Shown here in pieces: positions 730 through 64,000 of a stretch of DNA of 64,000 nt (position 1 is the first letter of the stretch; each line of letters begins with the position of its first letter). A program made the position numbers and the translations under genes. This stretch comes from a virus: IMG/VR virus record IMGVR_UViG_3300050501_000129. One strand, given 5' to 3'. Below the pieces are notes generated by a model, which made no database searches, was not told where the DNA came from, and saw nothing but the letters and a program-made list of their open reading frames with translations.

Positions 730-903
730 ATGCAGATTCGATTTGACCTCGTCAAGACGGCGTACGCGCTGATTTGGACCGAGGGCGGCCGCGGCCCGTT
801 CGCGGTGATGAGTAAGATAGAGTTCAGCAGGTTTCTCGAGACCTACGACGCGCGCAACATCAAGACCTACGTGTTCATCAGTATGAAGGGAGAAGAGCGA
901 TGA
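730..903 (+). CDS. hypothetical protein (57 aa, below track cutoff)
   Basis: ATG lies 3 nt after the preceding stop, with GAGGAG upstream. The ORF ends in an ATGA overlap with the gene starting at 900. Confidence 0.45.
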   Translation: MQIRFDLVKTAYALIWTEGGRGPFAVMSKIEFSRFLETYDARNIKTYVFISMKGEER

Positions 904-1865
904 GTGAAGAGCAGAGCACCCAGTTCAGCGTCCGTGAGGCGCCGTGGTTCAAACTCGGCAAGCTGGTCGACGAGCCGGTAACGGCCAAGGAGGCCGCAGA
1001 GCTTGGCGGACTCAACTTTGACGTTGAACTGCAAGAGGTCGGCACGTTCAAACGCGACGACAGCGGAAACATCTATCATACAAGTGTCGCACCGATCGAC
1101 AAGCGCCGTGCCGTCGTTGCCGTAGACAACGGCCAATTCATGGGATTCGTCTCGGCCAAAAAGTACACATCCCTCCAGTACGCGGACGCGTTCAACTTCA
1201 TGGACACGATCAACCCGCGCTACGTCGCCGCGGGCACGCTACGTGACCGCCGGCAGGGCTTTATGGTCGTCAAGCCGGAGATCCAGCTTAACGTCCTGGA
1301 CGGTGAGGATCCGCACGAGCTGTTCGCCGTGCTGCGGACGAGCCACGACTGCACCCGCGCCGTCGAGGTATCGGTGATGCCGCTGCGCGGACGCTGTATG
1401 AACCAGTTGACGCTCCGCAGCTTCGCCAAGGGTGTGCCACACCGCTGGTCGATCAAGCACACGACGACGCTGAACGCCAAGCTCGCGGAGGCAAAGAGCT
1501 CGCTGCAGCGTATCGGTATCTACGTCAAGCGCTACGAGCAGCTCGCACAACGTGTGGCGGATATAAACATCAGTGAGATGCAGGCGCGCGAGCTGCTGCA
1601 GATCTCGATCCCGCGACCGGCTAAGAAGACTGAGCGCATCGACCAGCAGTACCAGGACCGCATCAACGCCATGATAGATCTGTGGCAGACGTCGCCAACG
1701 GTGGCCTACGCGGGTACCGGTTGGGGCCTGGTCAACGCCGTCTCCGAGTACTACGACTGGTACCGGTCGGGCGGAACTCCCGAGTCCCGCTTCCTCAACG
1801 CGCTGGAGGGACAGACCCACAAGATCGTTAACAAGGTGGCGGGTCTCGTTCTGTCCGCCGCGTAG
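900..1865 (+). CDS. DUF932-family phage/plasmid protein
   Basis: 321 aa. Motifs LRTSHDCTRAVEVSVMPLRGRCMNQ and C-terminal WGLVNAVSEYYDW resemble the DUF932 (TIGR03299-type) family. Confidence 0.8.
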   Translation: MSEEQSTQFSVREAPWFKLGKLVDEPVTAKEAAELGGLNFDVELQEVGTFKRDDSGNIYHTSVAPIDKRRAVVAVDNGQFMGFVSAKKYTSLQYADAFNFMDTINPRYVAAGTLRDRRQGFMVVKPEIQLNVLDGEDPHELFAVLRTSHDCTRAVEVSVMPLRGRCMNQLTLRSFAKGVPHRWSIKHTTTLNAKLAEAKSSLQRIGIYVKRYEQLAQRVADINISEMQARELLQISIPRPAKKTERIDQQYQDRINAMIDLWQTSPTVAYAGTGWGLVNAVSEYYDWYRSGGTPESRFLNALEGQTHKIVNKVAGLVLSAA

Positions 1866-2275: not shown

Positions 2276-3349
2276 CTACGTGCCGCTTGTTTCGCGTTCT
2301 AGCGTAACCGCGCGCGTCCACGCGTCCAGCCAGCGCCACGCGTTGCGCTCGATGGTCAGCTTGGCGGCGGCGTCTCGGCCGGCTAGCGCGCTCTCGGTGC
2401 GGCGGTCCGCGCTCTTAACCAAGCTATGAACGTACTTTCGCCACTCATGTGAATTTTTTGCGAGCAGACCGACGCCAAGACGCGCCAAGCGAGAGTACTC
2501 AGCGCGCGGTGACATGACGCACGGAACGCCGACCGCCGCGTACTCCAGCGGCTTAAGCCATGACTTAGCGGCGTTAAACTTAGAGTCCGCCAGCGGCGCG
2601 ACCCCGATACCGATCGTGTTAACCGCCAGGGGCCACGCGTTGATGTCCCTTATGACGTCCGTCGTGTCGATCGTGTAGCGCGTCGAGACGCCCAGCGCGG
2701 TATGAACGCCCGCCAGCGGGCCGGCGACACGGAACTGGCAGCCAAGCTGCAGCAGCTGCGCCATAGAGGGTCCCATAACCTGCAGGTCGGTCGGGTGTGA
2801 GTGCACCGAGCCAGCCCAACCGATGACGTTAGAGTCGGTATGTTCGATCTTCAGGTAGCGCTCGGGAACGCAGTTGCGCAGAATGTGTACCGGGGTCTTG
2901 GCGCCGTAGCGCGTCGCTAGCGCGTCGGTCGAGACCGTCACCAGTGACGCCGCGTCGCAGGCGAGCAGCGTGTTTTGCCACGAGTGTACCGCGTTGGGCC
3001 CGCTGGGATGCAGCGCGTGGAACGCTGGATTGGCCGGGTGGATGCACGTTAAGTCATCATCCATGTCGACGACGACGGCGGTACCCGCGTTGCGGATGAT
3101 CGGTATCGCCTGCACCAGGTACCGGTGCGTGACGCGTTGGAACACGATGACGTCCGCGTCCTGCGGAATCCGGACCTGGACAACGTGATCACCGTCGAGC
3201 TTGGCCTGCAGCATCTGGTCACGTTCCTGTGACGTGACGATCACGACGTCATGTCCCTGGCGCTGCAGCTCACGCGCTGGCCAGATCAGCCGGTAGTAGC
3301 CGCAGCCGGTGGTGTCGGCCGGAAAGATGTAGATCTTCACCGGATCCAC
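2276..3349 (-). CDS. glycosyltransferase (GT-B type, tentative)
   Basis: 357 aa. N-terminal IYIFPADTTGCGYY and C-terminal KSWLKPLEYAAVGVPCVMS resemble the GT1/GT4 nucleotide-sugar binding region. The start may instead be the GTG at 3340. Confidence 0.75.
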   Translation of the reverse strand: MDPVKIYIFPADTTGCGYYRLIWPARELQRQGHDVVIVTSQERDQMLQAKLDGDHVVQVRIPQDADVIVFQRVTHRYLVQAIPIIRNAGTAVVVDMDDDLTCIHPANPAFHALHPSGPNAVHSWQNTLLACDAASLVTVSTDALATRYGAKTPVHILRNCVPERYLKIEHTDSNVIGWAGSVHSHPTDLQVMGPSMAQLLQLGCQFRVAGPLAGVHTALGVSTRYTIDTTDVIRDINAWPLAVNTIGIGVAPLADSKFNAAKSWLKPLEYAAVGVPCVMSPRAEYSRLARLGVGLLAKNSHEWRKYVHSLVKSADRRTESALAGRDAAAKLTIERNAWRWLDAWTRAVTLERETSGT

Positions 3350-3438
3350 CGGACCTCATCATAGTCGACGTACCACATGCAGTAGCTGAGATAGAAGATC
3401 CATAAGCCAAGCAAGGCATCATACAGCAGTCTTACCAC
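3337..3438 (-). CDS. possible 33-aa hydrophobic micro-ORF between two glycosyltransferase genes
   Basis: The GTG overlaps the upstream TAA. The product is VVRLLYDALLGLWIFYLSYCMWYVDYDEVRWIR. Its TGA forms a GTGA overlap with an alternative GTG start of the downstream gene. It is short and unverified. Confidence 0.25.
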   Translation of the reverse strand: MVRLLYDALLGLWIFYLSYCMWYVDYDEVRWIR

Positions 3439-4034
3439 CGGTCCGGCCTTCCGCTCGTGTTGTTACCATGGTGGTGCCAGACCCAGGTCACCTCAGGAAC
3501 GTGCAGAAACGCCGCGCCAACCTCCAGCAGCCGCAGATAGAAGCCCCAGTCGTCATAGTCGCTGTCCGGTGACGTGGCCGGCGGACCGAACAGCGCCTGC
3601 TTGGCCAGGTTGGCGTACACGAGAGACGTCACCGGTATGTATGACTTCTGACGCAGCAGGTCAGCGTCGAACGGCTGACCGAAGCGTCCCCACTCCTCGC
3701 GCTGCGGAAGTATCTCGCCCCGCGCGTCGACCACGCGGCAGCCGGAATAGACCACAGTGGCACCGGACCGCAGCGCGTGATGCAGCAGGATCGTAAGGTG
3801 ATCCGGTAGAAGCTCATCATCGTCGTCGAGAAACGCGACCCACGTCGTTGATATGTGATACAGCGCCCGGTTGCGCGTCAGCGCCGAGCCGTCGTGTCGC
3901 TTGTCGAACGAGATGACGACGTTCTCCGGCTGGTGAGTCTGCGCCGCGACGCTCGTGACCGCGCGCGTCAGCTCGAAACGACGCGTCGGGATATGCGGTA
4001 TGATGACGGTTACCCTGTCCACAGCTGTCCCCAT
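3432..4034 (-). CDS. glycosyltransferase family 2 (GT-A)
   Basis: 200 aa. N-terminal VIIPHIPTR and DxD-type FLDDDDELLPDH are typical of GT2. Confidence 0.85.
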   Translation of the reverse strand: MGTAVDRVTVIIPHIPTRRFELTRAVTSVAAQTHQPENVVISFDKRHDGSALTRNRALYHISTTWVAFLDDDDELLPDHLTILLHHALRSGATVVYSGCRVVDARGEILPQREEWGRFGQPFDADLLRQKSYIPVTSLVYANLAKQALFGPPATSPDSDYDDWGFYLRLLEVGAAFLHVPEVTWVWHHHGNNTSGRPDRW

Positions 4035-4045
4035 TCAGTAACCCG

Positions 4046-4624
4046 TCACTGCCACCTGGTTGGCAGTCCGCTGGTGTGATGTCCGTGCAGCCGGTAGTGC
4101 CAGGTAATCTCACCGGTGCCGGCAAACTTCGCGCTGATGTTCATACACCGCAGGATGAACATCCAGTCCTCTCCCATCCAGTCTTGGTGAAGCGGACCAT
4201 CCGGCATGAGAAAACCGGCCTCCTTGGCGATTCGCGTTCGTACCATGACATTCATCGTCGTGTGATGTGGCTCAGTGGGATTGAACTGCCGGCCGCGATG
4301 CATCGGAAACGGGTTGTTGCCGTCGAACCACGAGTACAGGAAGTCGGCACCGGTATCATGTTGAAGGTTCAACAGCGTCTCAACGTGGTGCGGATACCAG
4401 AGGTCGTCGTCATCGAGAAAGGCAACCCACTCGGTCTGTACGGCGTCCAACGCCCGCTGACGGGTCCGCGCCGCACCCTCGTGATTACAGTCCAGCGCGA
4501 CGGAGATGCCACCGTGCAGCGTCACCGTCTGCGCCTGCACCGAGCTGACGGCCTCTGACAGGAGGTTGCCGACGCGCGGCGGAATGGCCGCGATCGCTGC
4601 CGTGACGTCTACCGTCTTCTTCAC
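4046..4624 (-). CDS. glycosyltransferase family 2 (GT-A)
   Basis: 192 aa, a paralogue-like copy of 3432..4034 (FLDDDDLWYPHH; similar C-terminal HHTSGLPTRW). Confidence 0.85.
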   Translation of the reverse strand: MKKTVDVTAAIAAIPPRVGNLLSEAVSSVQAQTVTLHGGISVALDCNHEGAARTRQRALDAVQTEWVAFLDDDDLWYPHHVETLLNLQHDTGADFLYSWFDGNNPFPMHRGRQFNPTEPHHTTMNVMVRTRIAKEAGFLMPDGPLHQDWMGEDWMFILRCMNISAKFAGTGEITWHYRLHGHHTSGLPTRWQ

Positions 4625-5139
4625 TTAGCCAGAGCTCCCACGGCACACTGCCACTTGGGGCGCGCGTCAGCGACCGGCCAAAGCAGCTTGACTTCATCCA
4701 TATTCATCGGCACGACGCTCGACCAGCCCGCGTCTTCCAGCAGCTCAACGAGTCGCGTCTCGGTACACTCCCACAGGTGAACGTCGCCAGCCCACCGGCC
4801 AGCGCCGAAGCGCAGCGAATCTAGCGTCGCGCCGTACTCGTCCGACCCGGTCTCACCGAGCAGCTCGCGGCCGCGGTCGACGTCCGGTCCAACGATCATG
4901 ATCGCGCCGTTAATGACCATACAGTCGCGCAGCCGTGACAGCAGCGTCCACGCGTCTGCACGCGTCAGGTGCTCTAGGACGTGTCCCGCGTAGACGCACT
5001 CGACGCTACCCGTCGGCCACGGCAGCTCACCGGTCAGGTCGACACGCTGGTCAGCGCGGTGCGGCATTTCAGGTAGGTCGACGTTGAGCCAGCCGTTTGC
5101 GTAGCGGTCGCCGCAGCCTAGGTTAAGTTGCACGCTCAT
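4621..5139 (-). CDS. class I SAM-dependent methyltransferase
   Basis: 172 aa. LNLGCGDRYANGWLNVD glycine-rich SAM motif plus VYAGHVLEHL. Forms a 4-nt overlap with the downstream gene. Confidence 0.8.
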   Translation of the reverse strand: MSVQLNLGCGDRYANGWLNVDLPEMPHRADQRVDLTGELPWPTGSVECVYAGHVLEHLTRADAWTLLSRLRDCMVINGAIMIVGPDVDRGRELLGETGSDEYGATLDSLRFGAGRWAGDVHLWECTETRLVELLEDAGWSSVVPMNMDEVKLLWPVADARPKWQCAVGALAK

Positions 5140-5144
5140 ACCTC

Positions 5145-6374
5145 CTACAGCAGGGTCGGCGCGGGAATCGGTAGGATCCAGTGGCCGCCGTCGATCGTGA
5201 ACTGCTGCTCATTACGCATGATTGAACCGGCGTAGTTCCACGCGAGTAGCAGGTAGGTGTCAGTAATCTCATGATCGACGACGGTCTGGTTGTAGATCTT
5301 TATTCCCGTTCCCGGAATGTAGCGCTCCTGCTTCGCTTCAGTCGTATCGGTGACGTAGCGTAGCAGCTCACCGTCGATGCCACAGAAGTTAAGCAGCGTC
5401 GTCGCCTTGGCCGGCGCGCCGTATCCAACAACTGCGTGACCGGCGTCACGTTCGTCAAGCAGCAGCTGCAGAAGCCGTTGTTTGAGCCGCTCAGCACGCC
5501 CCTGGAGCCCGAGGTAGACGTTCGTGTCCGTTAACCAGGCTTCAGAGCTGACGACGCTGGAGACTCGTCTAGAGACCTGACTCTGCCGGCGCAGCTTGAC
5601 ACGCAACGAGCCACCCTGTCGGTCAGTAAGCTGCGCGTCAACGACGTACAAGCCGTGGTTACGCGCCGCAGAGCGCAGACTGGTCAGCGAGAAGAAGTTG
5701 CGATGCTCGTGGTAGACCAGGTCGAACGCGTTATTGAGGATCAAGTCAGGTAGGTACTGCACCTCGACATACACGGTACCCTTGAACGCCAGCAACTCAT
5801 CGATACCGGCGAAGACGTCAGAGACGCTCTCGACGTGCGCCAAGACATGGTTCGCGATGATGACGTCTGCGGGCCCGTGCTGCGCGTGAATCTCGTGTGC
5901 CAGGTTGCGGCCGAATGGCTTGACGACCGTCTCGACGCCGCGCTGCGCGGCGACCTCAGCCGGTCCGTCAGCTGGATCAACTCCAATGACACGCCAGCCC
6001 GCGCGCAAGAGCAAGTGTGAGAAATCACCGTCGTTTGACCCGATCTCAACTACGAGCGGCTTGCGTGCCAGTCCGCTGTCGCTTAGATTCCACTCGTTAA
6101 GAACGTCGTTGGCGTAGCGCGCATGATAGAGCGACAGCGGCTTGGATGCACTTGAGTAGAACGAGTAGCCCGAGCCGAATAGGTCCGGCACCACCTCGAG
6201 CAGCTGAACCAGGTGGCAGCCGGCGCAGACCGCCAGCTGCAGCGGGTAGTGCGTCACCGTCTCGTTGTCCTTGGTGTAGTTGTCCGCGATCGGCGACAGT
6301 CCCAAGTCAAGAACCAGGCGCAAGTCGTCGTAGTTGCACGCGCTGCAGCGCGTCCTCTTCATCGTTGTCCCCAC
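5145..6374 (-). CDS. C-methyltransferase-family enzyme (NDP-hexose C-methyltransferase-like)
   Basis: 409 aa. N-terminal Zn-type CSAC...CAGCHLVQL, a central SAM domain (VVEIGSNDGDF), and the LVYHEHRNFFSLTSL motif typical of the TylCIII-like architecture. Confidence 0.75.
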   Translation of the reverse strand: MGTTMKRTRCSACNYDDLRLVLDLGLSPIADNYTKDNETVTHYPLQLAVCAGCHLVQLLEVVPDLFGSGYSFYSSASKPLSLYHARYANDVLNEWNLSDSGLARKPLVVEIGSNDGDFSHLLLRAGWRVIGVDPADGPAEVAAQRGVETVVKPFGRNLAHEIHAQHGPADVIIANHVLAHVESVSDVFAGIDELLAFKGTVYVEVQYLPDLILNNAFDLVYHEHRNFFSLTSLRSAARNHGLYVVDAQLTDRQGGSLRVKLRRQSQVSRRVSSVVSSEAWLTDTNVYLGLQGRAERLKQRLLQLLLDERDAGHAVVGYGAPAKATTLLNFCGIDGELLRYVTDTTEAKQERYIPGTGIKIYNQTVVDHEITDTYLLLAWNYAGSIMRNEQQFTIDGGHWILPIPAPTLL

Positions 6375-6997
6375 TTCGAGTTGAAGATCTCCTCGGCACG
6401 CAGCCGCATCTCGTGAGATTTCTCGGTCTTATAGCCGAAGGTCGTATGATGATAAGTGTCGATGTCAGCGACGTAGACCCGCTTGCCGGCGTGCCTTGCC
6501 TCGAGACAGACGTCATCGTAGCCGTGAAATTCATAGCGTTCATCGAAGCGCAGCTCCTGAATCGCCCACGGCGAGAACACCATAAATGATCCCTCAACGA
6601 TGTCGACGTCTCCCGCAGACCGGTCACCAAAGTGAAGAAGTGCGCTGTCGGTCGACTGGTGACCGATCGGGTCGACGTCCCACCAGTTAAGTGACGGTCC
6701 GCCCCCGGCGACACCGATGATTGCGATTTGCGGATCTGCCGCAAAGACGGAGATAATCATCGGTTCTGTCAACGGATCAGTCATCTCGAGGTCATCGTGA
6801 AGTAGAACGACGGCATCCAAGTCATAGACTCGAAAGCCGTCTAGAATCGCGTTATACGCCACCGAGATCGAAATCTGGTTAAACGCCGTTAGGACCGGTT
6901 GATTCTTTGGGATCCGCGGCTCGACGTACCGGTGAAACTTGTCCCACGTGCCGACGCAGCAGCCGTAGCCGATCTTCACCATGGCCGCCGTCCCCAC
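6359..6997 (-). CDS. GT-A-like glycosyltransferase (tentative)
   Basis: 212 aa with LLHDDLEM (DxD-like) and a GT-A-like length. Translationally overlapped on both sides within the cassette. The family assignment is weak. Confidence 0.5.
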   Translation of the reverse strand: MGTAAMVKIGYGCCVGTWDKFHRYVEPRIPKNQPVLTAFNQISISVAYNAILDGFRVYDLDAVVLLHDDLEMTDPLTEPMIISVFAADPQIAIIGVAGGGPSLNWWDVDPIGHQSTDSALLHFGDRSAGDVDIVEGSFMVFSPWAIQELRFDERYEFHGYDDVCLEARHAGKRVYVADIDTYHHTTFGYKTEKSHEMRLRAEEIFNSKWGQR

Positions 6998-7683
6998 TTA
7001 AGCGCGAACGTCTCACCGTCGCGGCCGGCCTGCTCAGCGAGTGCGCCGCACGTCGTCGAGTTGGCTAGCGTGTTGAGCGGCGCCTCGCCCGGTAGCATCA
7101 GAACGCCGCCGGCTTGGATCGCTTGCCACTCAAAGTCAGTGTCGCCCCACCACCAGTGCATCTTCTCGTCGGCGCGCAGACCAAGCTCGCCGCGAACAAC
7201 GAACGCCCACGGACACATACGAGTCATGATGTTGCCGTCGATCTGCGTCTTTAGGTGTGGCATGCCGGCAGTCGTTTGTGTGTACGTGCACGCGATCGCG
7301 GGAACGTTCAGATGCTTTAGCGACTCCGTCGTCCGAAACAGCGCTCCAGCAACGTTGTCATACCAATTGGCGGGCAGTGATGTGTCGTCATTGAGGACCG
7401 CGACATCCCACAGCTTTTCACCAAACGCCTTGACGGTCATCTCGATGACGTTAAACGCCGTGTTCCACATCTTATAGAGGTGAGGCGGCTGCTCGTCATC
7501 ACGGTGAACGATCGTCTTGACGTCCGGAACCTGCATACGCAGCCACAGCGAAGACAGAGGTAGGTCACTGGCATTGTCGATGACGTAGACGAAGTCGACC
7601 TGGCCAGCTAGCTGGCGCAGCAGCGAGATCAGCTGTTCGTGACGGTTACGTGTTGGGATAATCGCGTATCGGGGGACTCTCAC
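6976..7683 (-). CDS. glycosyltransferase family 2 (GT-A)
   Basis: 235 aa. YAIIPTRNRHEQLISLLRQL and VYVIDNASD are typical of the GT2 N-terminus. Confidence 0.8.
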   Translation of the reverse strand: MRVPRYAIIPTRNRHEQLISLLRQLAGQVDFVYVIDNASDLPLSSLWLRMQVPDVKTIVHRDDEQPPHLYKMWNTAFNVIEMTVKAFGEKLWDVAVLNDDTSLPANWYDNVAGALFRTTESLKHLNVPAIACTYTQTTAGMPHLKTQIDGNIMTRMCPWAFVVRGELGLRADEKMHWWWGDTDFEWQAIQAGGVLMLPGEAPLNTLANSTTCGALAEQAGRDGETFALKWGRRPW

Positions 7684-7711
7684 CGGCCTACCGTATCACG
7701 CGAAGGGGTCG

Positions 7712-8392
7712 CTACGGCGTCTCGGTGATCGTGCACGTGATGACGTCGAAGGTGTCGATGTTAACGTTACCGGCACCGAGAAACTTACGAAAGCGCAACG
7801 TGCACTCGTAGACGCCGGCCGCGAAGTCCGCTGGCAGGTGAAACGCGGCCCCGACGTTCAGGTGCTGCAGCGCGGTGTTATATATCATGTGTGTCGTCGT
7901 GTAGTCGGTACCGTCGATCTGGATCGCGCCCTCGACGCCGATGCCGTTAGCGCTGACGTACGCTGCCATATTGTGGTTAACGTGAATCCGACTTGACGTG
8001 TAGTACTTAACGAACCGGATCGTGGCGGGTACGGCGCTAACCAGAACGTCATGAAACGCCGTATCTCCGAAGACCTGTGCATCAGGAGCGATGTACGTCG
8101 ACTCCTGCGACGGACCAGGTCCGCGACTGAGGTTGTTAACGACGTAGTTTAGGTTTGGCAGCACCGACTGCACCATCACTCGATCGCCAGGCGCCGCGGT
8201 GCCAGTCATCAACGTCGCGGGAACGTTGACGACTGAGCTTCCCTCAAAGCCCTCACCGTCGAACTGAATCATAAGTGACGTGCTCTCGCCGGTGACTACC
8301 GTCGCCGGCCGAAGCTGCCACATGTCGCTGCGGTATGAGGGCGTTCCACGCAAGCCTGCAACGCTCTCGGCAATAGCTAGCGGTGTCGTCAC
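7712..8392 (-). CDS. minor tail / tail-tip associated protein
   Basis: Last gene of the tail block. The GTG at 8392 makes a GTGA overlap with the upstream stop (the track start 8467 would overlap by 79 nt). No family recognised. Confidence 0.55.
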   Translation of the reverse strand: MTTPLAIAESVAGLRGTPSYRSDMWQLRPATVVTGESTSLMIQFDGEGFEGSSVVNVPATLMTGTAAPGDRVMVQSVLPNLNYVVNNLSRGPGPSQESTYIAPDAQVFGDTAFHDVLVSAVPATIRFVKYYTSSRIHVNHNMAAYVSANGIGVEGAIQIDGTDYTTTHMIYNTALQHLNVGAAFHLPADFAAGVYECTLRFRKFLGAGNVNIDTFDVITCTITETP

Positions 8393-9459
8393 AGAAAAGT
8401 CCTTCGTAAGATATGACGCATTGGCCGTATGATATCTAGTGGAAGTGTCCAGCTGATTTCTTGCCACAGCTTTTCCTGCCAGCGGATGACGTCGTACGAG
8501 TCGTGACGTGGATCCGGCAACGTCTCCAGCTCAACCTGCTGAAAGAGCGTTTGTGTCTGTACGAGCTGCTGCGCGATCGCCGCGGCTTGACCACGTGTAG
8601 TAACTTGACGCGTCGTTACCTCAGACACGATAAAGCCGCGGTTAGCGATCGAGTGCGGCGCCGAGCTGGGAACGTCGGCCGATGCGATGACCGCTTCATC
8701 GAATACCGCGGCGCCGTTTCCGATGACGACAAACCGGTTGGGAGCGTTAATCAGGTTATCGCTCTCGATGATCTGGTCGCGTATCACATTACCAGAGTCA
8801 AAATCAAAGTCTGGAATCTCATGCACGGGATCGAAAGTGCGCTTAAGCTGTAGCACCGAGTTGTTGTCAAACCACGGCGACAGGTAGTCTCCGTCAACGG
8901 CGAGCTGCTCCAGCACCTGCCCGCCACGGGTACCAGCGGCCCACGATCCCAGCGTCGTGAACTCGGACGAACCGGCAATGTAGAAGTCAATGGGATACCG
9001 CGATAAAAAACGGGTCAGCGCTGCCGACGCGACTTCGCCGTTAAGCGAGTTGGCGCCAAATGCGTTCGGAATCTGCTGGTCGATGATGAATCCCTCATCA
9101 TAGAACGAGGCGATCGACTGATTTCCGCCGCTCAGTCGAAACTGCGCCCAGTCGGACGGGACGTATCGACCGAGCGGAAACTCCTCATCTTTAATGACCA
9201 TGAAAAGCTGTAGGCGTGAAGAGATGCTGTTGAACGCGTTCGTATCGACTGTGTCAAGCGTCACCCCGGTGAGAGTACGTTTGATTGTCGCAAGTGTGTT
9301 GTGGACTAGAGATCCCGACTGACTGATGATCGGATTAATCTCACGCGTGTAGCCGGTTACCGCATCTACGAGCTCAAAACGCAGCGTCGCCATACGCTGA
9401 CCAACGTACGGCCGGCTGTCAAGCAGCACGTTGACGGGAGTCTTAGTTAAGTGTGTCAC
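8389..9459 (-). CDS. minor tail protein
   Basis: 356 aa. It lies downstream of the large tail protein within the tail block. Assigned by synteny only. Confidence 0.6.
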   Translation of the reverse strand: MTHLTKTPVNVLLDSRPYVGQRMATLRFELVDAVTGYTREINPIISQSGSLVHNTLATIKRTLTGVTLDTVDTNAFNSISSRLQLFMVIKDEEFPLGRYVPSDWAQFRLSGGNQSIASFYDEGFIIDQQIPNAFGANSLNGEVASAALTRFLSRYPIDFYIAGSSEFTTLGSWAAGTRGGQVLEQLAVDGDYLSPWFDNNSVLQLKRTFDPVHEIPDFDFDSGNVIRDQIIESDNLINAPNRFVVIGNGAAVFDEAVIASADVPSSAPHSIANRGFIVSEVTTRQVTTRGQAAAIAQQLVQTQTLFQQVELETLPDPRHDSYDVIRWQEKLWQEISWTLPLDIIRPMRHILRRTFL

Positions 9460-19964: not shown

Positions 19965-20648
19965 TTACGTCAGCAGGAACGCGCCGCAGATCGCGGGCTG
20001 GCTCGGCGGCGGCGTGGTTGTGATATTCCACAGGTAGTCGTCGATGTAGTTCGTCGTGTCGATGACGCCTGGCAGCCACGACGTGCCGGTACCGGGTCCG
20101 TCACCCCACAGCGGAGACGGGTAGGTTGTCATCGCCTCGAACGCGAGCTCCAGCGGCCCGTTCTCGATGCTGAACGAGTTGACCTTCGCGTTGAACACGT
20201 GCGGCCACGCCCAGTAGACGTAGCGCTGCAGACCCGTTACGGGATCGCACCGACCAGCGCCGGACAGCGGCTGCCACGTCTCGAGCGAGAAGTGCGCCGC
20301 CGGGTTGTTGTAGCCGTACGCGTTGCCGGAGCCAGTTACCGAGTTGGTAAGGATGAGCCGTGAACCGGTGATCAGTACGCCGGCGTCTGGATCAAGTACA
20401 CACATCGTTACGGTGACGTTCGAGTTGGCGTAGACGTTCGGTCCGACGAAGTTGACACACAGCTCTCCCGAGGCGGTCTTCGTCCGGAACGTGTCACCGT
20501 CCTCGTACTGCGGCTCGGGAGCGATCGAGGTGTATCCCTTGGTGACGACGACCGCGCTGGACGCGCCGGTGACCGGCGCCCCGCAGGCGTCAAGCTTGAC
20601 CAGTCGCAGAACAGTTCCCTGCACCGCGGGTCCGCACCACGCTGCCAC
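19965..20648 (-). CDS. major tail (tube)-like protein (tentative)
   Basis: 227 aa. LRLVKLDACGAPVTG...GELCVNFVG...MCVLDPD resembles actinophage major tail subunits from memory. The C-terminus is Thr/Pro-rich (NITTTPPPSQP). The position is atypical (upstream of the connectors). Confidence 0.45.
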   Translation of the reverse strand: MAAWCGPAVQGTVLRLVKLDACGAPVTGASSAVVVTKGYTSIAPEPQYEDGDTFRTKTASGELCVNFVGPNVYANSNVTVTMCVLDPDAGVLITGSRLILTNSVTGSGNAYGYNNPAAHFSLETWQPLSGAGRCDPVTGLQRYVYWAWPHVFNAKVNSFSIENGPLELAFEAMTTYPSPLWGDGPGTGTSWLPGVIDTTNYIDDYLWNITTTPPPSQPAICGAFLLT

Positions 20649-20656
20649 ATTTCCTC

Positions 20657-21559
20657 CTACGTGGGTGATGCGGCGGTGCCGGTGATGACTCCGCCGGTGC
20701 TAACGAGTAGACCGTAGTGACAGCAGTCCCAACCAAGCGCGAACCACTGCTCCGCGATCAGGACCGTGTCGTTGTTGGTGCGGTTTAAGAACTCGCGCGC
20801 GCTACGCGCCTTCCAGTCGACGTCCGACTGCCACAGCTTGACCGAGCCGGTGGCGTACATCCACTCTTGGCCAAACGGCGGGTTGACGCCAGCCGGTGAC
20901 GTTCCCGGGTAGCCCGGCGCGCCGACCACAATTGAGCCAGCCGGCGTAACGAGCCGCGAGCCCTTGCGTTCCAGGAGGTGATTGGCCGCCAGGTGCGCCA
21001 CGACGTTCATCGGCATGTGCAGGAACGGCGTGCCGCCGTAGCACGAGCCCATCAGACCCTCGAGCGTACCGACGGCTTCGACGACGTCAAACGTGCCGGT
21101 GACGACGGTAGCCGCGGTCTGCAGCGTGACGGTCGAGCCGCCGCTGACCTCAGTGACCGCGGTGTCCTCAGCCAGGTGTGGCATCGTGTTGTACAGGCCA
21201 CCGGTCCAGAAGATCTCTTCGATTCGCGTGTCGACGTTGCGCTCGTGCGCCAGCAGCGTCTTACGCTTAAGTTCCGCCTCACCGATACCGACCAGCCCGC
21301 AGTCTAGCCACGTGTAGACGACGAACGGCGTCGCGCCGCGGAAGTTGGCCAGCGCGTTCGGCGTCTTGGTCGGCCCGAGGCCAACGCCGGTGATACACTG
21401 CGTCGTGGCCTCGAGCGGGATGTTGCATGACTCAGCGTCGTAAAAGATGCCGAGCCTCTGGTGTCCCGTGAACGGGTGCGGTCCGTCGGCCGCGGCCCGC
21501 AGCCGGTACGGATGCGGCTGAAAGACCGGCGGCGATGCCCAGTCAAACTTGCTAACCAC
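20657..21559 (-). CDS. HK97-fold capsid-like protein (second capsid-type gene, tentative)
   Basis: 300 aa. Its C-terminal segment FLNRTNNDTVLIAEQWFALGW resembles the HK97 gp5 C-terminal segment FVKNMLTILCEERLALAHY. There is no N-terminal delta domain. Confidence 0.5.
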   Translation of the reverse strand: MVSKFDWASPPVFQPHPYRLRAAADGPHPFTGHQRLGIFYDAESCNIPLEATTQCITGVGLGPTKTPNALANFRGATPFVVYTWLDCGLVGIGEAELKRKTLLAHERNVDTRIEEIFWTGGLYNTMPHLAEDTAVTEVSGGSTVTLQTAATVVTGTFDVVEAVGTLEGLMGSCYGGTPFLHMPMNVVAHLAANHLLERKGSRLVTPAGSIVVGAPGYPGTSPAGVNPPFGQEWMYATGSVKLWQSDVDWKARSAREFLNRTNNDTVLIAEQWFALGWDCCHYGLLVSTGGVITGTAASPT

Positions 21560-21604: not shown

Positions 21605-23269
21605 TTAGACGCCGCACTCGGTCAGGTCGGCCGCGCCGGTCGTACCGTCGGGGCAGATGTTAACGGTGAGACGCCGTACCTCGTGGCCCGGGTTGAAGAT
21701 CAACCAGCACTCTTCCATCCACTCGGCGGTGTAGTCGTTGGTGGCGTTGAGCACTGAGTCACGGATGATGCCGAGGTCCAAGCGCATGCCCTGACCGAGC
21801 ACGACGGTGCCCGGCGCGAACATCATGAACTCGACGGTCGTCGGCCACGCGGTCGGCAGCGTTCCGGGAACGCCCGGGAAGCCGGTGGTACGGACCTGGT
21901 AGTCGTTGACCCACTGGATCCGGACGTTGATCGCGTCGAACAGGCTCATCAGGTACGCGTCGGACGCGGACAGCATGTCCGTACCGGCACCCATGCGCTT
22001 GCGCAGGTCGGAACGCAGCACGCCGCGCAGCCAGCGGGGAGCGATGACCTCAAGGACCGCGTCTTGGCACATCGAGTAGCGGTCACGGTAGTCAATCGCC
22101 TGCAGCTCCATCGCGCCAAGGACCGGTGCGACGGCGCCCGCGCCCGCGGAGCCGTTGGTCACGGTGAACGACGCGGACAGCGCCCGGACCTCGTTGATGC
22201 GCGCACGGTTGATCTTGTGGAAGTGCGACGCCATCACCAAGCGGGTGTGGTTGGCGATCAGCTCGGGATACGCGTCCTCGGTCAGGTTGCCGACGGTGAG
22301 ACAGATACCGTCACAGTGGAGACGTGCCTCGTTGAAGCCGGGGCACGGCACCCGGCCGCAGGTCTTGGTACCCGACTGCCCGGTGCCCGTGACGGCCGCG
22401 ATGTCCTGCGTCTCGGTCCAAGTCCACAGCGCGCCGCCGAGGACGACGTCCGCGAATGACGGTGAGGTGGGCCAGCGGATGCCGCCGCGGTTGATACCGA
22501 CCGTCGGCAGGTCGAGCGCGCCGTCCTCACAGACGATGTTGAAGAAGTCGTAGCTGATCTCGGAGGGCGAGCACCAGCCACCGGCCGCGATCAAGATGTC
22601 GGGGTTGGCCGCCGCGGTCATCACCGCGTTGAACTCGGCGAGACTCGAGTCTAGACCGAGCATGTACTTGTGCTCTCGCATCAGCGACGCGATCGGGATG
22701 CGAGGCGCGGCGTCTCCCTTGTCGGTGATCGGCAGGTGCTTGGCACGAGCGGTCATCGCCGCGACGAGACCCTCCATACCCTCAAGCTTGGTACCCGACT
22801 GGAAGCCCGGGATGTCCGACGACGCGATGAGCACCGACTCGGGACGCGGCGCGTCGGCCGGCGGCGCGTTGCGCTGCGCGTCAGCCAGTGACGGGTTCTT
22901 GAACTTGCCCATCGGTCGGGGCTGCGTCGTGGCGCCGCCCTTAGCCGGTGTCGCGGCCGCCTCGACCGGCGTCTCAGCCGCGTCCTCGGGCTCTTCAGCT
23001 GCCTCTTCCAGCGCGGCCTTGCCCTTGGCGCGCTTGTCTGCGACAGCCGCGGCTTCCTCGGTCCGGCGGATCTTCTCCAGCTTGACGCGACCGATGCCGT
23101 CCGCAAGGGACTCCATCTCGTTGGCCTCGACGACCTGCACGGCGAGCTCGACCGTGTCGCTGGCGTACAGCTCGCTGATTCGCGCTCTCGCGGCGGTGAC
23201 GAACTGGTCTAGCTGCTCTACGCTGAGGGTGGTGATGTCCTCAGGCAGGCTCAGAATGTTCTCAGACAC
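21605..23269 (-). CDS. major capsid protein with N-terminal scaffold/delta-like region
   Basis: 554 aa. The N-terminal ~160 aa are coiled-coil and Ala/Glu/Pro-rich. The C-terminal ~390 aa carry capsid-like motifs (AAGGWCSPSEISYDF; NATNDYTAEWMEECW). It lies downstream of the protease gene. Confidence 0.7.
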   Translation of the reverse strand: MSENILSLPEDITTLSVEQLDQFVTAARARISELYASDTVELAVQVVEANEMESLADGIGRVKLEKIRRTEEAAAVADKRAKGKAALEEAAEEPEDAAETPVEAAATPAKGGATTQPRPMGKFKNPSLADAQRNAPPADAPRPESVLIASSDIPGFQSGTKLEGMEGLVAAMTARAKHLPITDKGDAAPRIPIASLMREHKYMLGLDSSLAEFNAVMTAAANPDILIAAGGWCSPSEISYDFFNIVCEDGALDLPTVGINRGGIRWPTSPSFADVVLGGALWTWTETQDIAAVTGTGQSGTKTCGRVPCPGFNEARLHCDGICLTVGNLTEDAYPELIANHTRLVMASHFHKINRARINEVRALSASFTVTNGSAGAGAVAPVLGAMELQAIDYRDRYSMCQDAVLEVIAPRWLRGVLRSDLRKRMGAGTDMLSASDAYLMSLFDAINVRIQWVNDYQVRTTGFPGVPGTLPTAWPTTVEFMMFAPGTVVLGQGMRLDLGIIRDSVLNATNDYTAEWMEECWLIFNPGHEVRRLTVNICPDGTTGAADLTECGV

Positions 23270-25866: not shown

Positions 25867-26562
25867 TCACGAAACGAGCGGGATATCATGCACGTCGCCA
25901 CCGAACGCGAGCCGTACCCGGTCAAACGTCACCGGTCCCGTCTTATCCGCAAGCGCGACGACCCGCTGAATGTCGTCAGTGTAGACCAGCGTCAGGTGCG
26001 GTATCCAGGGAACGTGCTGCTCCGGTAGACCAAAGCCAGGTGACGTATCCTGTACATCACGCGCGACGCTGTCGACCGTCGTGTGAATCTGCTCGAGCTC
26101 ACGGCCGGACAGCCCTAGAACGATGCACGTATCCCGGTCCTTGCCGTCTTCCTTAGTGTGTCCCGGCGGGTTGAAAACGCTAACCGCGAAGCCCTCGCCG
26201 GCGACCGTGCCGCGTCCGCCGAGGACGTTCTTTAGGCGCTCAACCAGCTTGTTACGCGCGTTCGTCGAGATGTCGTCAGCTTCTCCGAGGTAAACCAGCG
26301 TTACGTGCAATTGATCTTGTGGTTCGCCGCCGTCAACAGTGAGTCGTTTGACGTCCGCGTCGCTCGGCACTAACGCAATCATCGCTCCAGTATGTACCTC
26401 AGCGGCTGCAACGGTGATCTTCGGTAGACCGAACGTGTTCATGTCTGCACCGGCCAGCAGCGCGTACGCCTCAGCCTCAGTAAGGCCGGGACGTTCCTCA
26501 ACTTCCTCAAAGAGGACGTTCTCCGGGTCAGAGAGCGGCGTCAGTCGTGTAGGATTTGTCAC
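25867..26562 (-). CDS. 2H phosphoesterase (LigT / cyclic phosphodiesterase-like)
   Basis: 231 aa with two HxTx motifs (H86-V-T-L in QLHVTLVYLG; H189-L-T-L in IPHLTLVY) at the spacing typical of the 2H superfamily. Confidence 0.8.
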   Translation of the reverse strand: MTNPTRLTPLSDPENVLFEEVEERPGLTEAEAYALLAGADMNTFGLPKITVAAAEVHTGAMIALVPSDADVKRLTVDGGEPQDQLHVTLVYLGEADDISTNARNKLVERLKNVLGGRGTVAGEGFAVSVFNPPGHTKEDGKDRDTCIVLGLSGRELEQIHTTVDSVARDVQDTSPGFGLPEQHVPWIPHLTLVYTDDIQRVVALADKTGPVTFDRVRLAFGGDVHDIPLVS

Positions 26563-29500
26563 TACGCCTCCACCCGCAGATGTACCTCTATCACGTTGTT
26601 GTACCCCGTATCTTTTACCGAGACGACGCGGTAGTTAAGCCCCAGCGCCAGCAGCATCTCATCTTCACTCGGGTTAGCGCTGATTGACTTGATGAACGCC
26701 GCCGGTGTACCCGCTGGCAGATCGATCGTCAGGTGTACGTTTCCGCTCCACGTTCCGGACGAGACGCTCGTTGACAGCGGCGCGCGGTCGACAAACAGCT
26801 TGCCCTCTAGCTTCTTTATGTCGGCATACCCGGAGCCGTTGGTCAGTCCCGGAAACTGTGACGCTCCTGTCTTACGGAAGACGCGAACGCTCTCCGGCAG
26901 CGGCCGCATGCCCGCTTGGATGTTGACCGCGGTCCGCGCGGCGAGCAGCTTCGCGTCTTCAGACATGTACTTGACTTCATTGGTAAGATCACGGATAACT
27001 GGGTTCATCTCGCTGTAGTAACTGCCGGAGTACTTCGTTAGCGCGGCCTTCTGCGCGCTCGTCCAGGGGGCGCTAGCCAGCATCTGGTTCTGCAGCGTCT
27101 GTGCCGTAGAGATGTTGAGCGTCTTGAAGGTCTTCGCGTTGAGATCAGGCGTCCCGATCTGTCCCGGTGTCTTGATCTTCGCGAGGGTGTCGAGAACCGC
27201 CTGCGAGAAGTTCGACTTGTAGACGTGACCGTTGACCGTCGTGGGGGGCGGCGGGTGCAGCAGGTCGGTCGCGAACTTAGCACCGGCCGGCGTTTGCAGC
27301 CACGCGACGATCGCCTTCTCGTACGCGTTGGTGTTGGTGACCTCCGGCGCGCTCGCGTCCTTCTGCTTGGCAACCGCGTTGGCCTTGTTGGTCGACTGCT
27401 CATCGACGATCTTCAGTAGCTGCAGCAGATTGAGCTTAGGTACAAGTGAAAGCTTGCTATCCTCGTTGTGCTTCTCAAGAGTTTCGTGCAGCGCGGTGAA
27501 CAGCGTCTCAGGAGTCGAGCTAAGCGTGACAAATCCCACGCTGCTCTGCTTCTTAAACCTGTCGAATATCGCGCGTTGTGCTGCAGAACTCATGTCAACG
27601 GGAATCTGTCCGTGCATCTTCTGCAGCGTTGCGACGTCAAACTTCTCCTGCGGCTTTGGTTTTACAGCCGGCGCGGAGACGGCGGTAGACGGCGTCGGAC
27701 CGGACGTCGAGATCTTCGGCGCAACCGAGCTGGTGCCAAAGACGCCACCGGAGCCAATCGCCGAGTCACCCGCCGGCGGCTCAAACCAGTTGCTTCCCTT
27801 ACCAAACGCGGCGTACGCGTCTTTCTTGCTGTGGAACGTCACATTTGTCCACAACGAGTTATCATTCTGTGACTGTTCCTGCAGCACGAACTTCTTTAGG
27901 TTGTCGTTCCAGACCAACCGGCTAATCTGGTCAGTGTTGGGATTCTTGTGATAGCCGACGACCGCGCCGTTCTGGTACTTCGTCGTGTGAATCGTCTTGG
28001 TGCTGATCTTCATCGGCTTCTTGAGGTCGCTCGCCTTGATCGGTCCGAGCGTCGGCGCGGTGGGTGCGCTCGGCGTGACCAGAGTCATGACGCTTGGCGC
28101 GACGGCGGGAGCTGGCGCGACGGCGGGATCCGGCGTCACCGGCGCGTTGATCGGTGACGAGCTAGTCGACGTCGACGGCACGATCGTGGCAACTACGACG
28201 TGCTCGGTACCCATACCGAACTTGGCCCTGTCCTCCGCGGTGGCCTTGCGGACCTCGTCGATCCGGTAGCTCGTTCCCGCGGCGAGGATGATTTCGTGCT
28301 CACTGTGCCCCGGGATGCCCGCGTCCGCGTAGACGGCCGGCGTACCCTCAGGCGTGTTGACGATCATCTGGATCGGCTTTTTGGCGTAGTCGTACGAGAC
28401 GGCCTTGGTCTCGTCGACGGTCGTCGAGAAGAAGCCCTTGTCGGTCAGCGTCTGGCCCTCGAGCGCCTTGAGCTTGGTGAAGTCGGCCGCGATCGTGTTC
28501 TGTCCGAACGCCTGCGCGCCCGTACCGCGGAACAGCCGTAGGCTGGACGGCAGCGGCTTCATCGCGTTCTGTAGGTTGACGGCGTGTTTGACGCCGTCCT
28601 GCAGCTGCGCGTCGCTGAACTTAGCGAGCTGGTTCTTGTCATCACGCAAGACCGCATTCATGCTGCGGTATCCGACGCTGGTGCCGTACTTCTTTATGGC
28701 AGCGATCTGTCCCGAGTTCCACGCGCCAGAGTCAGCAAACATCGACTTCTGCAGCTTGTCAGCCTGCGTCGGCGTGATAACGCTGTAGATCGCGTTCTTG
28801 ACCGGCGCGTTGGGCGTGCCGATCTCGCTGACCTTCTTGATCTTTCCGTGCACATCGACGTAAAACTTGCTACCAATCGTCGCCGATACCGTCGCCGGTA
28901 CCGACGTCTTAACCGGTGGTCTAGCCGTCACAGTCGCCGTTGGCGTAGGTGTAGCGCTCTGCCACTCCTCAATCTTCTGCTTCGGTGTGTTGAATCCCCA
29001 CACGTCAGCCTCGTTCGCGAGCAGCTTCAGCTTCTGCTGCTGCGGCGCGTCCAGCTGGTCCCAGTCGTTGGCGGTAACGCCCTTTGTGTGCAGATCGAAC
29101 CAGTCGGCGAACGCCGCCGGCGCAATCAGGTGACTAACGTCCTTGATGTCTTGGTCGAGCTTCTGCGCGACGGCACCGGCGCCGCCCTTGCCGGCTATGA
29201 AGCCTTTGATCTTGTCGCTAAACTTCTGCCCGAGCGGCGCGTTGACGTCGTAGAACGGTGCTTCATGAGCAATCACAGCCTGGTCAGACGCGGACAGCTT
29301 ATCGAAGTCGTCCTGCGTCAGCTTGGTGAAAAAGTCTGCGACAACGTGTGGTGGATCGTTATAGAAGTCAGGTATAGCTACGCCTGACCCGGATGGTGAC
29401 GTCAGCGGCGCCATGTTGAGCAGCGCCTCAGAGATGTTTGTGTGTTCAATCTTCGAAAGCTTACCCTGCAGCATCAATGTGGTATTTACCGCGTCAATCC

Positions 29501-38208: not shown

Positions 38209-38388
38209 TTATGTCATCTTCATGACAGCGCAGCAGTCCTCTCGATCGCAGCCGGTGCAGCCGCAGTCTCCCTTAAGATCACACGCTCCCGTGCAGTCCG
38301 GATTATCACAAAACCCGTACCAGTCGCCGTCAACGCAGCACTCTCCCTCGAGCGGGTCGCCGCAGCTCGGCGGCGCCAGTGACGTCAC
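38209..38388 (-). CDS. Cys-rich microprotein (11 Cys in 59 aa)
   Basis: The GTG at 38388 forms a GTGA overlap with the terminase stop. Contains CC, CxxxxC, CGC and CxxC clusters. Confidence 0.55.
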   Translation of the reverse strand: MTSLAPPSCGDPLEGECCVDGDWYGFCDNPDCTGACDLKGDCGCTGCDREDCCAVMKMT

Positions 38389-63999: not shown

Positions 64000-64000
64000 C

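Follow-up and report, generated by a model that had tools for sequence, protein, structure and literature searches.

The 64,000-nt stretch of DNA analysed here (IMG/VR record IMGVR_UViG_3300050501_000129, hereafter the window) comes apparently from an uncultured soil actinobacteriophage and represents most of its genome. A 26-kb IMG/VR contig (IMGVR_UViG_3300006853_000185) that is 96-97% identical spans both window ends, giving a genome of approximately 68.3 kb with 4.3 kb outside the window, and the phage is apparently a lytic actinobacterial siphophage of about 68 kb. Seven co-oriented open reading frames (ORFs) on the minus strand occupy positions 2276-7683 and form a predicted glycosylation cassette, which is the subject of this analysis. 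An earlier note on this DNA had described a tightly packed cassette, on the same strand as the tail genes, of five glycosyltransferases (GTs), an O/N-type methyltransferase and a TylCIII-like C-methyltransferase-family enzyme. All seven ORFs lie where that note placed them, and the assignments are supported by Pfam, PHROG, PDB and structural model comparisons. The genes, numbered g1 to g7 in order of transcription, are as follows.

6976-7683, minus strand: g1, divergent GT-A (GT2-like) glycosyltransferase, 235 aa, identified by its homologues, an AlphaFold2 model and an NDD motif
6359-6997, minus strand: g2, GT-A-like glycosyltransferase, 212 aa, Pfam Glyco_tranf_2_5 (PF13712)
5145-6374, minus strand: g3, homologue of nucleoside diphosphate (NDP)-hexose 3-C-methyltransferases, 409 aa, Methyltransf_13, Methyltransf_23 and Methyltransf_14 domains
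4621-5139, minus strand: g4, small class-I S-adenosylmethionine (SAM) methyltransferase-like protein, 172 aa, N-terminal LNLGCG motif, phrog_6636 methyltransferase (1.1e-8)
4046-4624, minus strand: g5, GT2 glycosyltransferase, 192 aa, Pfam Glycos_transf_2 (PF00535, 2.8e-10) and phrog_14775 (3.6e-34)
3432-4034, minus strand: g6, GT2 glycosyltransferase, 200 aa, Pfam Glycos_transf_2 (PF00535, 8.5e-11) and phrog_14775 (2.4e-36)
2276-3349, minus strand: g7, probable GT-B (GT4-like) glycosyltransferase, 357 aa, phrog_7162 glycosyltransferase (4e-41)

The intergenic spacings from g1 to g7 are -22, -16, +5, -4, +11 and +82 nt in order, in agreement with the packing described earlier. The cassette is bounded by the following features.

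8389-9459, minus strand: 356-aa tail protein, phrog_1887 tail protein (2.2e-10)
7712-8467, minus strand: 251-aa ORF directly upstream of the cassette, matching no Pfam or PHROG family and assigned to the tail module by position only
7684-7711, minus strand: 28-nt gap between the upstream ORF and g1, hairpin-free and with no terminator-like site
2220-2258, no strand assigned: hairpin, probable bidirectional terminator, within the 76 nt that separate the convergent stop codons of g7 and whiB

The cassette was said in the earlier note to start 28 nt past the last tail gene; this distance is exact, while the tail identity of the 251-aa ORF comes from its location. The sequence GGTAGG is found at this gap, 5 nt ahead of the GTG start. 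A consensus promoter scan gave nothing above shuffled expectation. Folding of 2200-2275 as RNA gave -37.3 kcal/mol (z = -4.18), with 0 of 200 shuffled sequences folding equally well, and the hairpin at 2220-2258 probably closes the late operon as a bidirectional terminator. Late co-transcription of the cassette with the tail genes, as had been proposed, is plausible given the tight packing, the shared orientation, the hairpin-free 28-nt gap and the strong hairpin that follows g7.

A GT-A fold with a DxD-type motif is predicted for g5 and g6 by PF00535, for g2 by PF13712, and for g1 by the structural model together with the NDD motif. The g1 product has no direct match in Pfam or PHROG. Many of its 318 homologues carry PF00535, the NDD motif at residues 98-100 is invariant, and the AlphaFold2 model (predicted local distance difference test score, pLDDT, 92.8) is best matched in Foldseek by the GT-A enzymes AvpGT and RmlT. 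A g1 fold search against viral structures was also considered as a clue to the acceptor and was set aside as not discriminating, with generic GT-A matches only, DNA-directed ones included. The protein exhibits 36% identity with gp108 of Streptomyces phage Zuko, and the only cultured-phage homologues belong to Zuko and KimJongPhill. The g2 product matches Glyco_tranf_2_5 at 9.5e-8 (32.4 bits, with a cut-off of 27) and the PDB entries 2qgi/2nxv at 1e-4; it has no homologue among 50,697 GenBank phage records, and its gene adjoins the C-methyltransferase gene in most related contigs. The g5 and g6 products are paralogues with 35% identity. The former is 41% identical to Zuko gp106, and homologues of the latter in cultured phages are limited to the Streptomyces phages Zuko and KimJongPhill and three Arthrobacter jumbo phages. 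The g7 product exhibits sub-threshold matches to Pfam Glyco_trans_1_4, Glyco_trans_1_2 and Glyco_transf_4, and a profile built from 26 homologues matches the GT4 GT-B enzymes MshA (3c4q) and BshA (2jjm) at approximately 6e-4 over the C-domain. This gene is the commonest cassette gene among the relatives.

By every sequence feature tested, the g3 product appears to be a good member of the TylC3/TcaB9 family. It has the architecture of a zinc-binding N-domain, a SAM domain and a C-domain (PF08421 at 2.7e-13, PF13489 at 7.9e-20 and PF08484 at 2.9e-42), and its PDB matches are TylC3 (4rv9, 1.5e-66), TcaB9 (3ndi, 3.2e-66) and KijD1 (5t64), with full-length alignment to 4rv9 and 3ndi. Residues Cys10, Cys13, Cys50 and Cys53 align with the zinc ligands of TcaB9, and Tyr70, His180, Tyr221, Glu223 and His224 align with Y76, H181, Y222, E224 and H225. 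We take the TcaB9 numbering to be that of four zinc cysteines and catalytic Tyr76, His181, Tyr222, Glu224 and His225; the roles of these Tyr/His/Tyr-x-Glu-His residues were reportedly probed by mutation by Bruender and Holden. Conservation of the Zn-Cys4 site and of these five residues in g3 makes the C-branched sugar suggested in the earlier note a reasonable prediction and a plausible product of the cassette. TylC3, TcaB9 and KijD1 act in actinomycete deoxysugar pathways and share with g3 the three domains, the Zn-Cys4 site and the Tyr/His/Tyr-x-Glu-His residues at E-values of approximately 1e-66, but g3 is phage-borne and the window encodes no 4,6-dehydratase, 2,3-dehydratase, aminotransferase or 4-ketoreductase. 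Relatives of g3 in GenBank phages exhibit at most 31% identity and come from metagenome-assembled genomes of jumbo phages only. For g4, Pfam Methyltransf_11 was returned at 0.0083, under the cut-off, and PDB and profile matches were weak; the gene is kept beside the C-methyltransferase gene in approximately 20 contigs.

More than 100 viral contigs in IMG/VR contain the cassette in complete or partial form. With the C-methyltransferase as query, 61 IMG/VR loci were recovered, of which 48 exhibit 50-100% identity; all cassette proteins were then run by tblastn, and the contigs were read within ±10 kb. The same neighbours were recurrent, and the complete seven-gene order was found again in contigs L006, L008, L035, L042, L047 and L051. 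Chance does not explain the cassette, because dozens of independent viral contigs contain homologues of every gene, 30-100% identical and in a conserved order. When a profile of the 356-aa tail protein was used for a second scan, 80 distinct contigs were recovered, 60 of which have at least 6 kb downstream. Two to six GT homologues are located at the cassette position in 56 of these 60, accompanied by the C-methyltransferase in 19. The content ranges from a GT2 with a GT-B, through g1 with a GT2 and a GT-B, up to two GT-Bs with the C-methyltransferase and short-chain dehydrogenases/reductases (SDRs). The flanks are constant: tail genes precede the cassette, and whiB with a DUF932 gene lies beyond it. 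The interval enclosed by these conserved flanks is a hotspot where gene content varies, and the cassette would form the variable closing section of the late (virion) operon.

Clustering of the ORFs in the intervals of the relatives identified further families, including an NAD-dependent epimerase/dehydratase, an RmlC-like 3,5-epimerase (1.9e-40), an RmlD-like reductase, a TOD1/MUCI70 GT-like family, more methyltransferases and an FAD oxidoreductase. An SDR adjoins the C-methyltransferase in 26 of the 54 loci that could be judged and is either RmlB-like (dTDP-glucose 4,6-dehydratase model, 2.2e-45) or Gmd-like (4.4e-53), the latter with Pseudomonas aeruginosa Gmd as its best PDB match. In the Gmd-like protein (L013:11104-12069 and homologues in 24 loci), SSA replaces the TSE catalytic motif of GDP-mannose 4,6-dehydratase. 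A role for this neighbour as a dehydratase is doubtful with the catalytic Glu replaced, and it may be a Gmd-derived 4-ketoreductase. Its presence hints at a GDP-linked 6-deoxyhexose and not a TDP-2,6-dideoxy sugar.

None of the g1-g7 proteins contains a transmembrane segment. Among 542 distinct ORFs from 115 cassette variants, only nine have a hydrophobic segment and none encodes a polytopic flippase, polymerase or GT-C. This lack of transmembrane segments and of polytopic or export proteins indicates that the acceptor is either cytoplasmic or exported by the host.

The cassette is found in three structural-gene contexts. The first, downstream of the tail genes, is that of the window. In L007, L014, L127 and L141 it is immediately upstream of a capsid gene, and in at least 18 contigs of the unrelated L013/L021 lineage it lies between the major capsid and head-tail adaptor genes, in the order protease, phrog_10 capsid, two-GT fusion, g2, C-methyltransferase, Gmd-like SDR, GT2 and adaptor. 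Of the computational arguments for a virion-linked product, the strongest is that the cassette adjoins structural genes each time.

Tail-module relatives that lack the cassette were also observed (L229-L238, 37-40% identity). These are prophages of Micromonospora, Actinoplanes and Catenuloplanes with a GC content of approximately 0.70, and Micromonosporaceae may accordingly be among the hosts of the wider group. Prophages of Micromonospora and Actinoplanes were considered as negative controls for the acceptor tails and were rejected, as their head and tail-tube genes are also unrelated and no comparison is possible.

Virion glycosylation in mycobacteriophages is reportedly described by Freeman et al. 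2023 (Cell Host Microbe 31:1216). In PMC12363180, PMC11600133 and PMC12619734, phage GTs of Che8, Corndog and Myrna are described as glycosylating the C-termini of capsid and tail-tube subunits, and PMC11600133 lists an O-methyltransferase and three GTs for Corndog. These Corndog genes are located within the structural operon in the portal-protease interval, and Che8 encodes three GTs (gp108-110). The window shares with Corndog, Che8 and Myrna the actinophage cluster of small, soluble GT-A-type GTs with a methyltransferase, and with Corndog the tie of that cluster to the virion structural operon. The cassette is larger than those of mycobacteriophages, as the earlier note stated, exceeding the three GTs of Che8 and the O-methyltransferase and three GTs that PMC11600133 gives for Corndog. 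It differs in having five GTs instead of three, a probable GT-B and an NDP-sugar 3-C-methyltransferase, while its relatives add SDR, RmlC-like and RmlD-like sugar-nucleotide enzymes. It differs further in the pairing of hexamer and pentamer capsid proteins, in candidate acceptors without G-S/D-S ends, and in being a system predicted from its genes. In its working, the cassette appears most like the Corndog/Che8 system, to which it would be analogous; it is not orthologous, as the GTs share only the fold.

A full cassette was not found in any cultured phage. Zuko carries a subset. It and KimJongPhill are Streptomyces phages and the nearest cultured carriers (genes 106-109 plus 4-5), with homologues of g1 (36%), g5/g6 (41%) and g7 (27%) and a small methyltransferase between GTs in the order GT, methyltransferase, GT. 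Both differ from the window in lacking g2 and the C-methyltransferase, and their genes are at both genome ends by UDP-glucose dehydrogenase and terminase, not after tail genes. Giant viruses (chloroviruses, Mimivirus) and bacterial O-antigen clusters resemble the cassette in encoding their own GTs and rare-sugar nucleotide enzymes with hypervariable content. They differ in that the former are eukaryotic viruses and the latter depend on cellular export through Wzx, Wzy or ABC transporters, none of which is found in the cassette variants.

Three virion proteins of the window are candidate acceptors.

21605-23269, minus strand: hexamer-type major (main) capsid protein, phrog_777
20657-21559, minus strand: pentamer capsid protein, phrog_779, homologue of an annotated 'major capsid pentamer protein' in relatives
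19965-20648, minus strand: major tail (tail-tube) protein, phrog_792

The earlier note had named as a candidate acceptor the C-terminus of a capsid-like protein, which ends in GGVITGTAASPT. This is the C-terminal end of the pentamer protein, which is indeed a capsid component but not the main capsid protein. In approximately 45 cassette-bearing relatives, the C-termini of the pentamer and tail-tube proteins are nearly always short tails rich in S/T/G/P, with lineage-variable sequence, and the cassette-less Gordonia phage Wizard has no such tails on either protein. Phage Jabs, which is structurally related and likewise has two capsid proteins, bears an exposed, outward turret formed by the C-terminal extension of its hexamer protein.

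The cassette is best explained as a system for cytoplasmic glycosylation of virion proteins analogous to those of Corndog and Che8, a reading to which we give almost an even chance. Late in infection, the seven soluble cytoplasmic enzymes would be produced together with the head and tail proteins. The g3 product would methylate an NDP-4-keto-6-deoxyhexose at C-3; this substrate would most likely come from a host GDP-mannose or dTDP-glucose 4,6-dehydratase, and a host reductase would complete the sugar. The g4 product would add another methyl group, probably as an O-methyl on the sugar. The five GTs, four of GT-A and one of GT-B type, would then build a short, methylated, branched-deoxysugar glycan on exposed Ser/Thr residues of virion subunits before or during assembly, with the C-terminal tails of the pentamer capsid, hexamer capsid and tail-tube proteins as the best predicted sites. 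With island content differing from phage to phage, related phages would bear differently decorated particles. That mycobacteriophage-type virion glycosylation applies here, as the earlier note had put forward, gains from the three structural-gene contexts and loses in that the GTs share only a fold with those of Corndog and Che8.

Several observations weigh against this reading. In a blastp comparison at 1e-2 with Corndog gp36-38 and Che8 gp108-110, the only match was between g6 and gp108 (1e-4 over 78 residues), and membership through homology to these GTs was rejected in favour of fold-level similarity. The window candidates end in ..TECGV, ..AASPT and ..AFLLT, without the G-S/D-S endings of four Che8 and Corndog capsid and tail-tube proteins taken as acceptors by analogy with reported sites; those of Che8 end in ..KTGS and ..SDGS and those of Corndog in ..LVGS and ..KGDS. 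The tail-tube motif N-I-T-T-T-P-P-P...C-G-A, proposed earlier as an acceptor in the form NITTTPPPSQP, is conserved family-wide. It is present in degenerate form in Wizard (FQTPVPPPAITAGAIALAA) and in Microbacterium phage Jayden (ETTIAPPPEACDP), both without a GT cassette, and reads FNLAPLPLPALTGCGAAALA, free of Thr, in the cassette-bearing L144. The motif was consequently rejected as a cassette-specific acceptor and is considered mainly structural. Homologues of the tail-tube and pentamer proteins are encoded by approximately 360 cultured Gordonia and Microbacterium phages in which GTs are absent. Neither a 4,6-dehydratase nor a 4-ketoreductase was found in the window or in the 4.3 kb beyond it, and it must be assumed that the host supplies the NDP-4-keto-6-deoxyhexose and the reductase. 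Homologous GTs of the Arthrobacter phage Racecar are located in a non-structural region, lipid-linked wall precursors are another possible substrate of soluble GTs, and the glycan is predicted from sequence throughout. The remaining points concern DNA: that of the phage very probably contains hydroxymethylcytosine, as judged from the genes described below; GT-A 'TET-associated' DNA glycosyltransferases exist, and the g1 fold matches some of them; and Zuko, the only cultured cassette relative, has an extra ThyA-like gene in addition to ThyX, and also MazG.

The genes underlying the hydroxymethylcytosine prediction are on the plus strand.

52385-53479, plus strand: deoxynucleoside monophosphate kinase-like protein, adjoining the MilA-like gene
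53344-54204, plus strand: thymidylate synthase-fold protein, MilA-like, matching the cytidine monophosphate 5-hydroxymethylase MilA at 3.5e-11 against 1.7e-7 for any ThyA
61908-63173, plus strand: T4 β-glucosyltransferase-like protein, 421 aa, AlphaFold2 model with pLDDT 86.8, its top six PDB/Foldseek matches being T4 β-glucosyltransferase
approximately 63173-63859, plus strand: sugar-1-phosphate nucleotidylyltransferase, translationally coupled to the 421-aa gene

The MilA-like protein has the PC catalytic motif and an Asp, within 'LGLPYD', at the base-specificity position that is occupied by Asn in ThyA. Together with the kinase-like gene it suggests DNA containing 5-hydroxymethylcytosine. 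The 421-aa protein has 762 metagenomic homologues, and with the nucleotidylyltransferase it would probably form a pair for glycosylation of DNA hydroxymethylcytosine that is separate from the cassette. The 4.3 kb lying between window positions 64000 and 1 (L005:10520-14800) encode a dUTPase_2/MazG-like protein and a 504-aa C5 cytosine DNA methylase, in addition to two small holin-like membrane proteins, an Amidase_2 lysin and a DUF6011 protein. The holin-like and Amidase_2 genes place the lysis genes outside the window.

Of the alternatives, the one that survives best is that the cassette elongates and methylates a glycan begun by the β-glucosyltransferase-like enzyme on 5-hydroxymethylcytosine, with variable DNA coats serving to evade restriction and type IV nucleases; the earlier note did not consider it, and we regard it as unlikely but as a serious rival. 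A set of such genes is encoded by the genome, comprising the MilA-like hydroxymethylase with its Asp together with the kinase-like, β-glucosyltransferase-like, nucleotidylyltransferase, dUTPase_2/MazG-like and C5 methylase genes, and on the circular map the modification genes are just 6-9 kb or so from the g7 end. A cytoplasmic DNA acceptor also fits a cassette with no export gene, and the mom gene of phage Mu is a precedent for late-expressed DNA modification next to tail genes. PMC12619734, citing Pyle 2024, describes 5-hydroxymethylcytosine-directed phage GTs with diverse glycans. Phage DNA glycosylation systems (T4 α/β-glucosyltransferases; methyltransferase- and TET-associated GTs) likewise combine soluble GTs, a cytoplasmic acceptor and a sugar content that varies among relatives. 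The difference is that in this phage such genes form a module of their own in the replication arm, on the other strand amid replication genes and with their own GT and nucleotidyltransferase, while the cassette is tied to structural genes. The clustering typical of DNA hydroxymethylation and glycosylation genes is seen at 53344-54204, at 61908-63859 and in the C5 methyltransferase/MazG genes, and not in the cassette. The DNA-modification set is constant in relatives whose tail-adjacent cassettes vary from two to six GTs. In three lineages the cassette adjoins capsid or tail genes and not nucleotide-metabolism genes, and there would be no precedent for a nucleobase modified by five GTs together with a C- and an O-methyltransferase. 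The presence of a dedicated, separate DNA-glycosylation set counts for the cassette acting on virion proteins. It would also make DNA a chemically accessible acceptor in the cytoplasm for additional sugars. Were DNA the acceptor after all, the pathway would exceed in complexity any other described for nucleobase glycans.

Remodelling of the host envelope, the alternative offered in the earlier note, stays in consideration with a slim chance and is disfavoured, as membrane or export components and lysogeny genes are lacking. The cassette would add new sugars to lipid-linked precursors of wall or surface glycans, and so mask receptors, block superinfection or prevent the sticking of progeny to debris. 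The g5 and g6 products resemble, over the N-terminal half only and far below cut-offs, enzymes of the TuaG, WcaA and PglI type whose acceptors are undecaprenyl-linked, and the wall-teichoic-acid rhamnosyltransferase RmlT is among the nearest solved folds of g1. Many wall-glycan GTs are peripheral proteins without transmembrane helices, and the location of the Racecar GTs also fits such a role. The 115 cassette variants, however, contain no flippase, polymerase, ligase, GT-C or polytopic protein, and late expression would give little time for the envelope to be rebuilt. Lysogenic conversion of the GtrABC type is unlikely: the cassette encodes no transmembrane or polytopic protein, no integrase or repressor was found in the phage, and the Micromonosporaceae prophage relatives are precisely those without the cassette.

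A different soluble acceptor is highly improbable. In that reading the cassette would produce an unattached glycoside or oligosaccharide, or would glycosylate a non-structural protein of the phage or its host, perhaps to inactivate a defence or a regulator, and would only hitch-hike at a recombination-prone operon end. In its favour, the tail-to-whiB/DUF932 region is a gene-content hotspot and g3-family C-methyltransferases are otherwise known from antibiotic deoxysugar pathways; against it, the same enzymes are found beside capsid genes in unrelated lineages and aglycone-biosynthesis genes are absent from all variants.

The window has a GC content of approximately 61% and includes a WhiB gene and three tRNAs. 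No GenBank phage record (n = 50,697) is near at the DNA level, with both the cassette and 25 kb of structural genes used as queries. The genes assigned in the long late operon on the minus strand are given here in order, with the terminase first.

38385-39947, minus strand: terminase

It is followed by the genes for the portal, a 1963-aa MuF/ADP-ribosyltransferase fusion, the hexamer capsid protein, the pentamer capsid protein, the major tail protein, the tape measure protein, a 1253-aa tail protein and the 356-aa tail protein. The 1963-aa ORF (26562-32453, minus strand), in the portal-capsid interval, contains MuF-like head-morphogenesis, NUDIX and ADP-ribosyltransferase-toxin-like regions (phrog_2468, phrog_1198 and phrog_3895), and a 231-aa RNA-ligase/2H-like ORF comes after it. 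The capsid comprises two proteins, a hexamer protein whose long N-terminal region is rich in Ala and Glu, and the 300-aa pentamer protein. C-terminal cysteines are kept in these proteins (..CPDGTTGAADLTEC.. and ..WDCCHY..) and in the tail tube (..CGAF..), which resembles the disulfide-cross-linked M. abscessus phage Jabs. In a near-identical contig (L004:1058-2805, against window 7712-9459), the 356-aa and 251-aa ORFs are only 86-88% identical while the cassette genes are 99-100% identical, a local mosaic typical of fast-evolving distal tail or receptor-binding proteins. The DUF932 gene (window 900-1865, plus strand; L001:10410-11384) flanks the cassette with whiB clade-wide. A homologue (29%) lies inside the GT cluster of the Arthrobacter jumbo phage Racecar, adjoining a nucleotidyltransferase, and a functional link between DUF932 and GT clusters is possible.

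Mycobacteriophage virion glycosylation blunts antibody recognition, and to our knowledge phage-encoded virion glycosylation has been documented so far only in a handful of mycobacteriophages. Glycosylation of virion proteins by the cassette could have a wider meaning, put forward here speculatively and with some doubt: a large clade of uncultured soil actinophages and at least two unrelated lineages may carry an O-antigen-like, hypervariable 'glyco-island' in the virion operon, encoding 3-C-methylation, O-methylation, epimerisation, keto-reduction and two to six GTs, such that close relatives wear different branched, methylated coats and represent phage 'serotypes'. As there are no antibodies in soil, the function of virion glycans would then be expected to lie outside immunity, in the stability of the particle, in adhesion, or in evading bacterial defences that recognise capsid or tail proteins. 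If the cassette does glycosylate virion proteins, such glycosylation would be common in soil phages, extending over dozens to hundreds of contigs, and its chemistry would be far richer than is known, with branched-chain, methylated deoxysugars partly made by the phage. The compact, soluble GTs and the phage-borne C-methyltransferase would also provide a toolbox for glyco-engineering of therapeutic phages. Glycan coats would then diversify in the manner of bacterial surface antigens, which would raise the question of what selects for them outside animal hosts.

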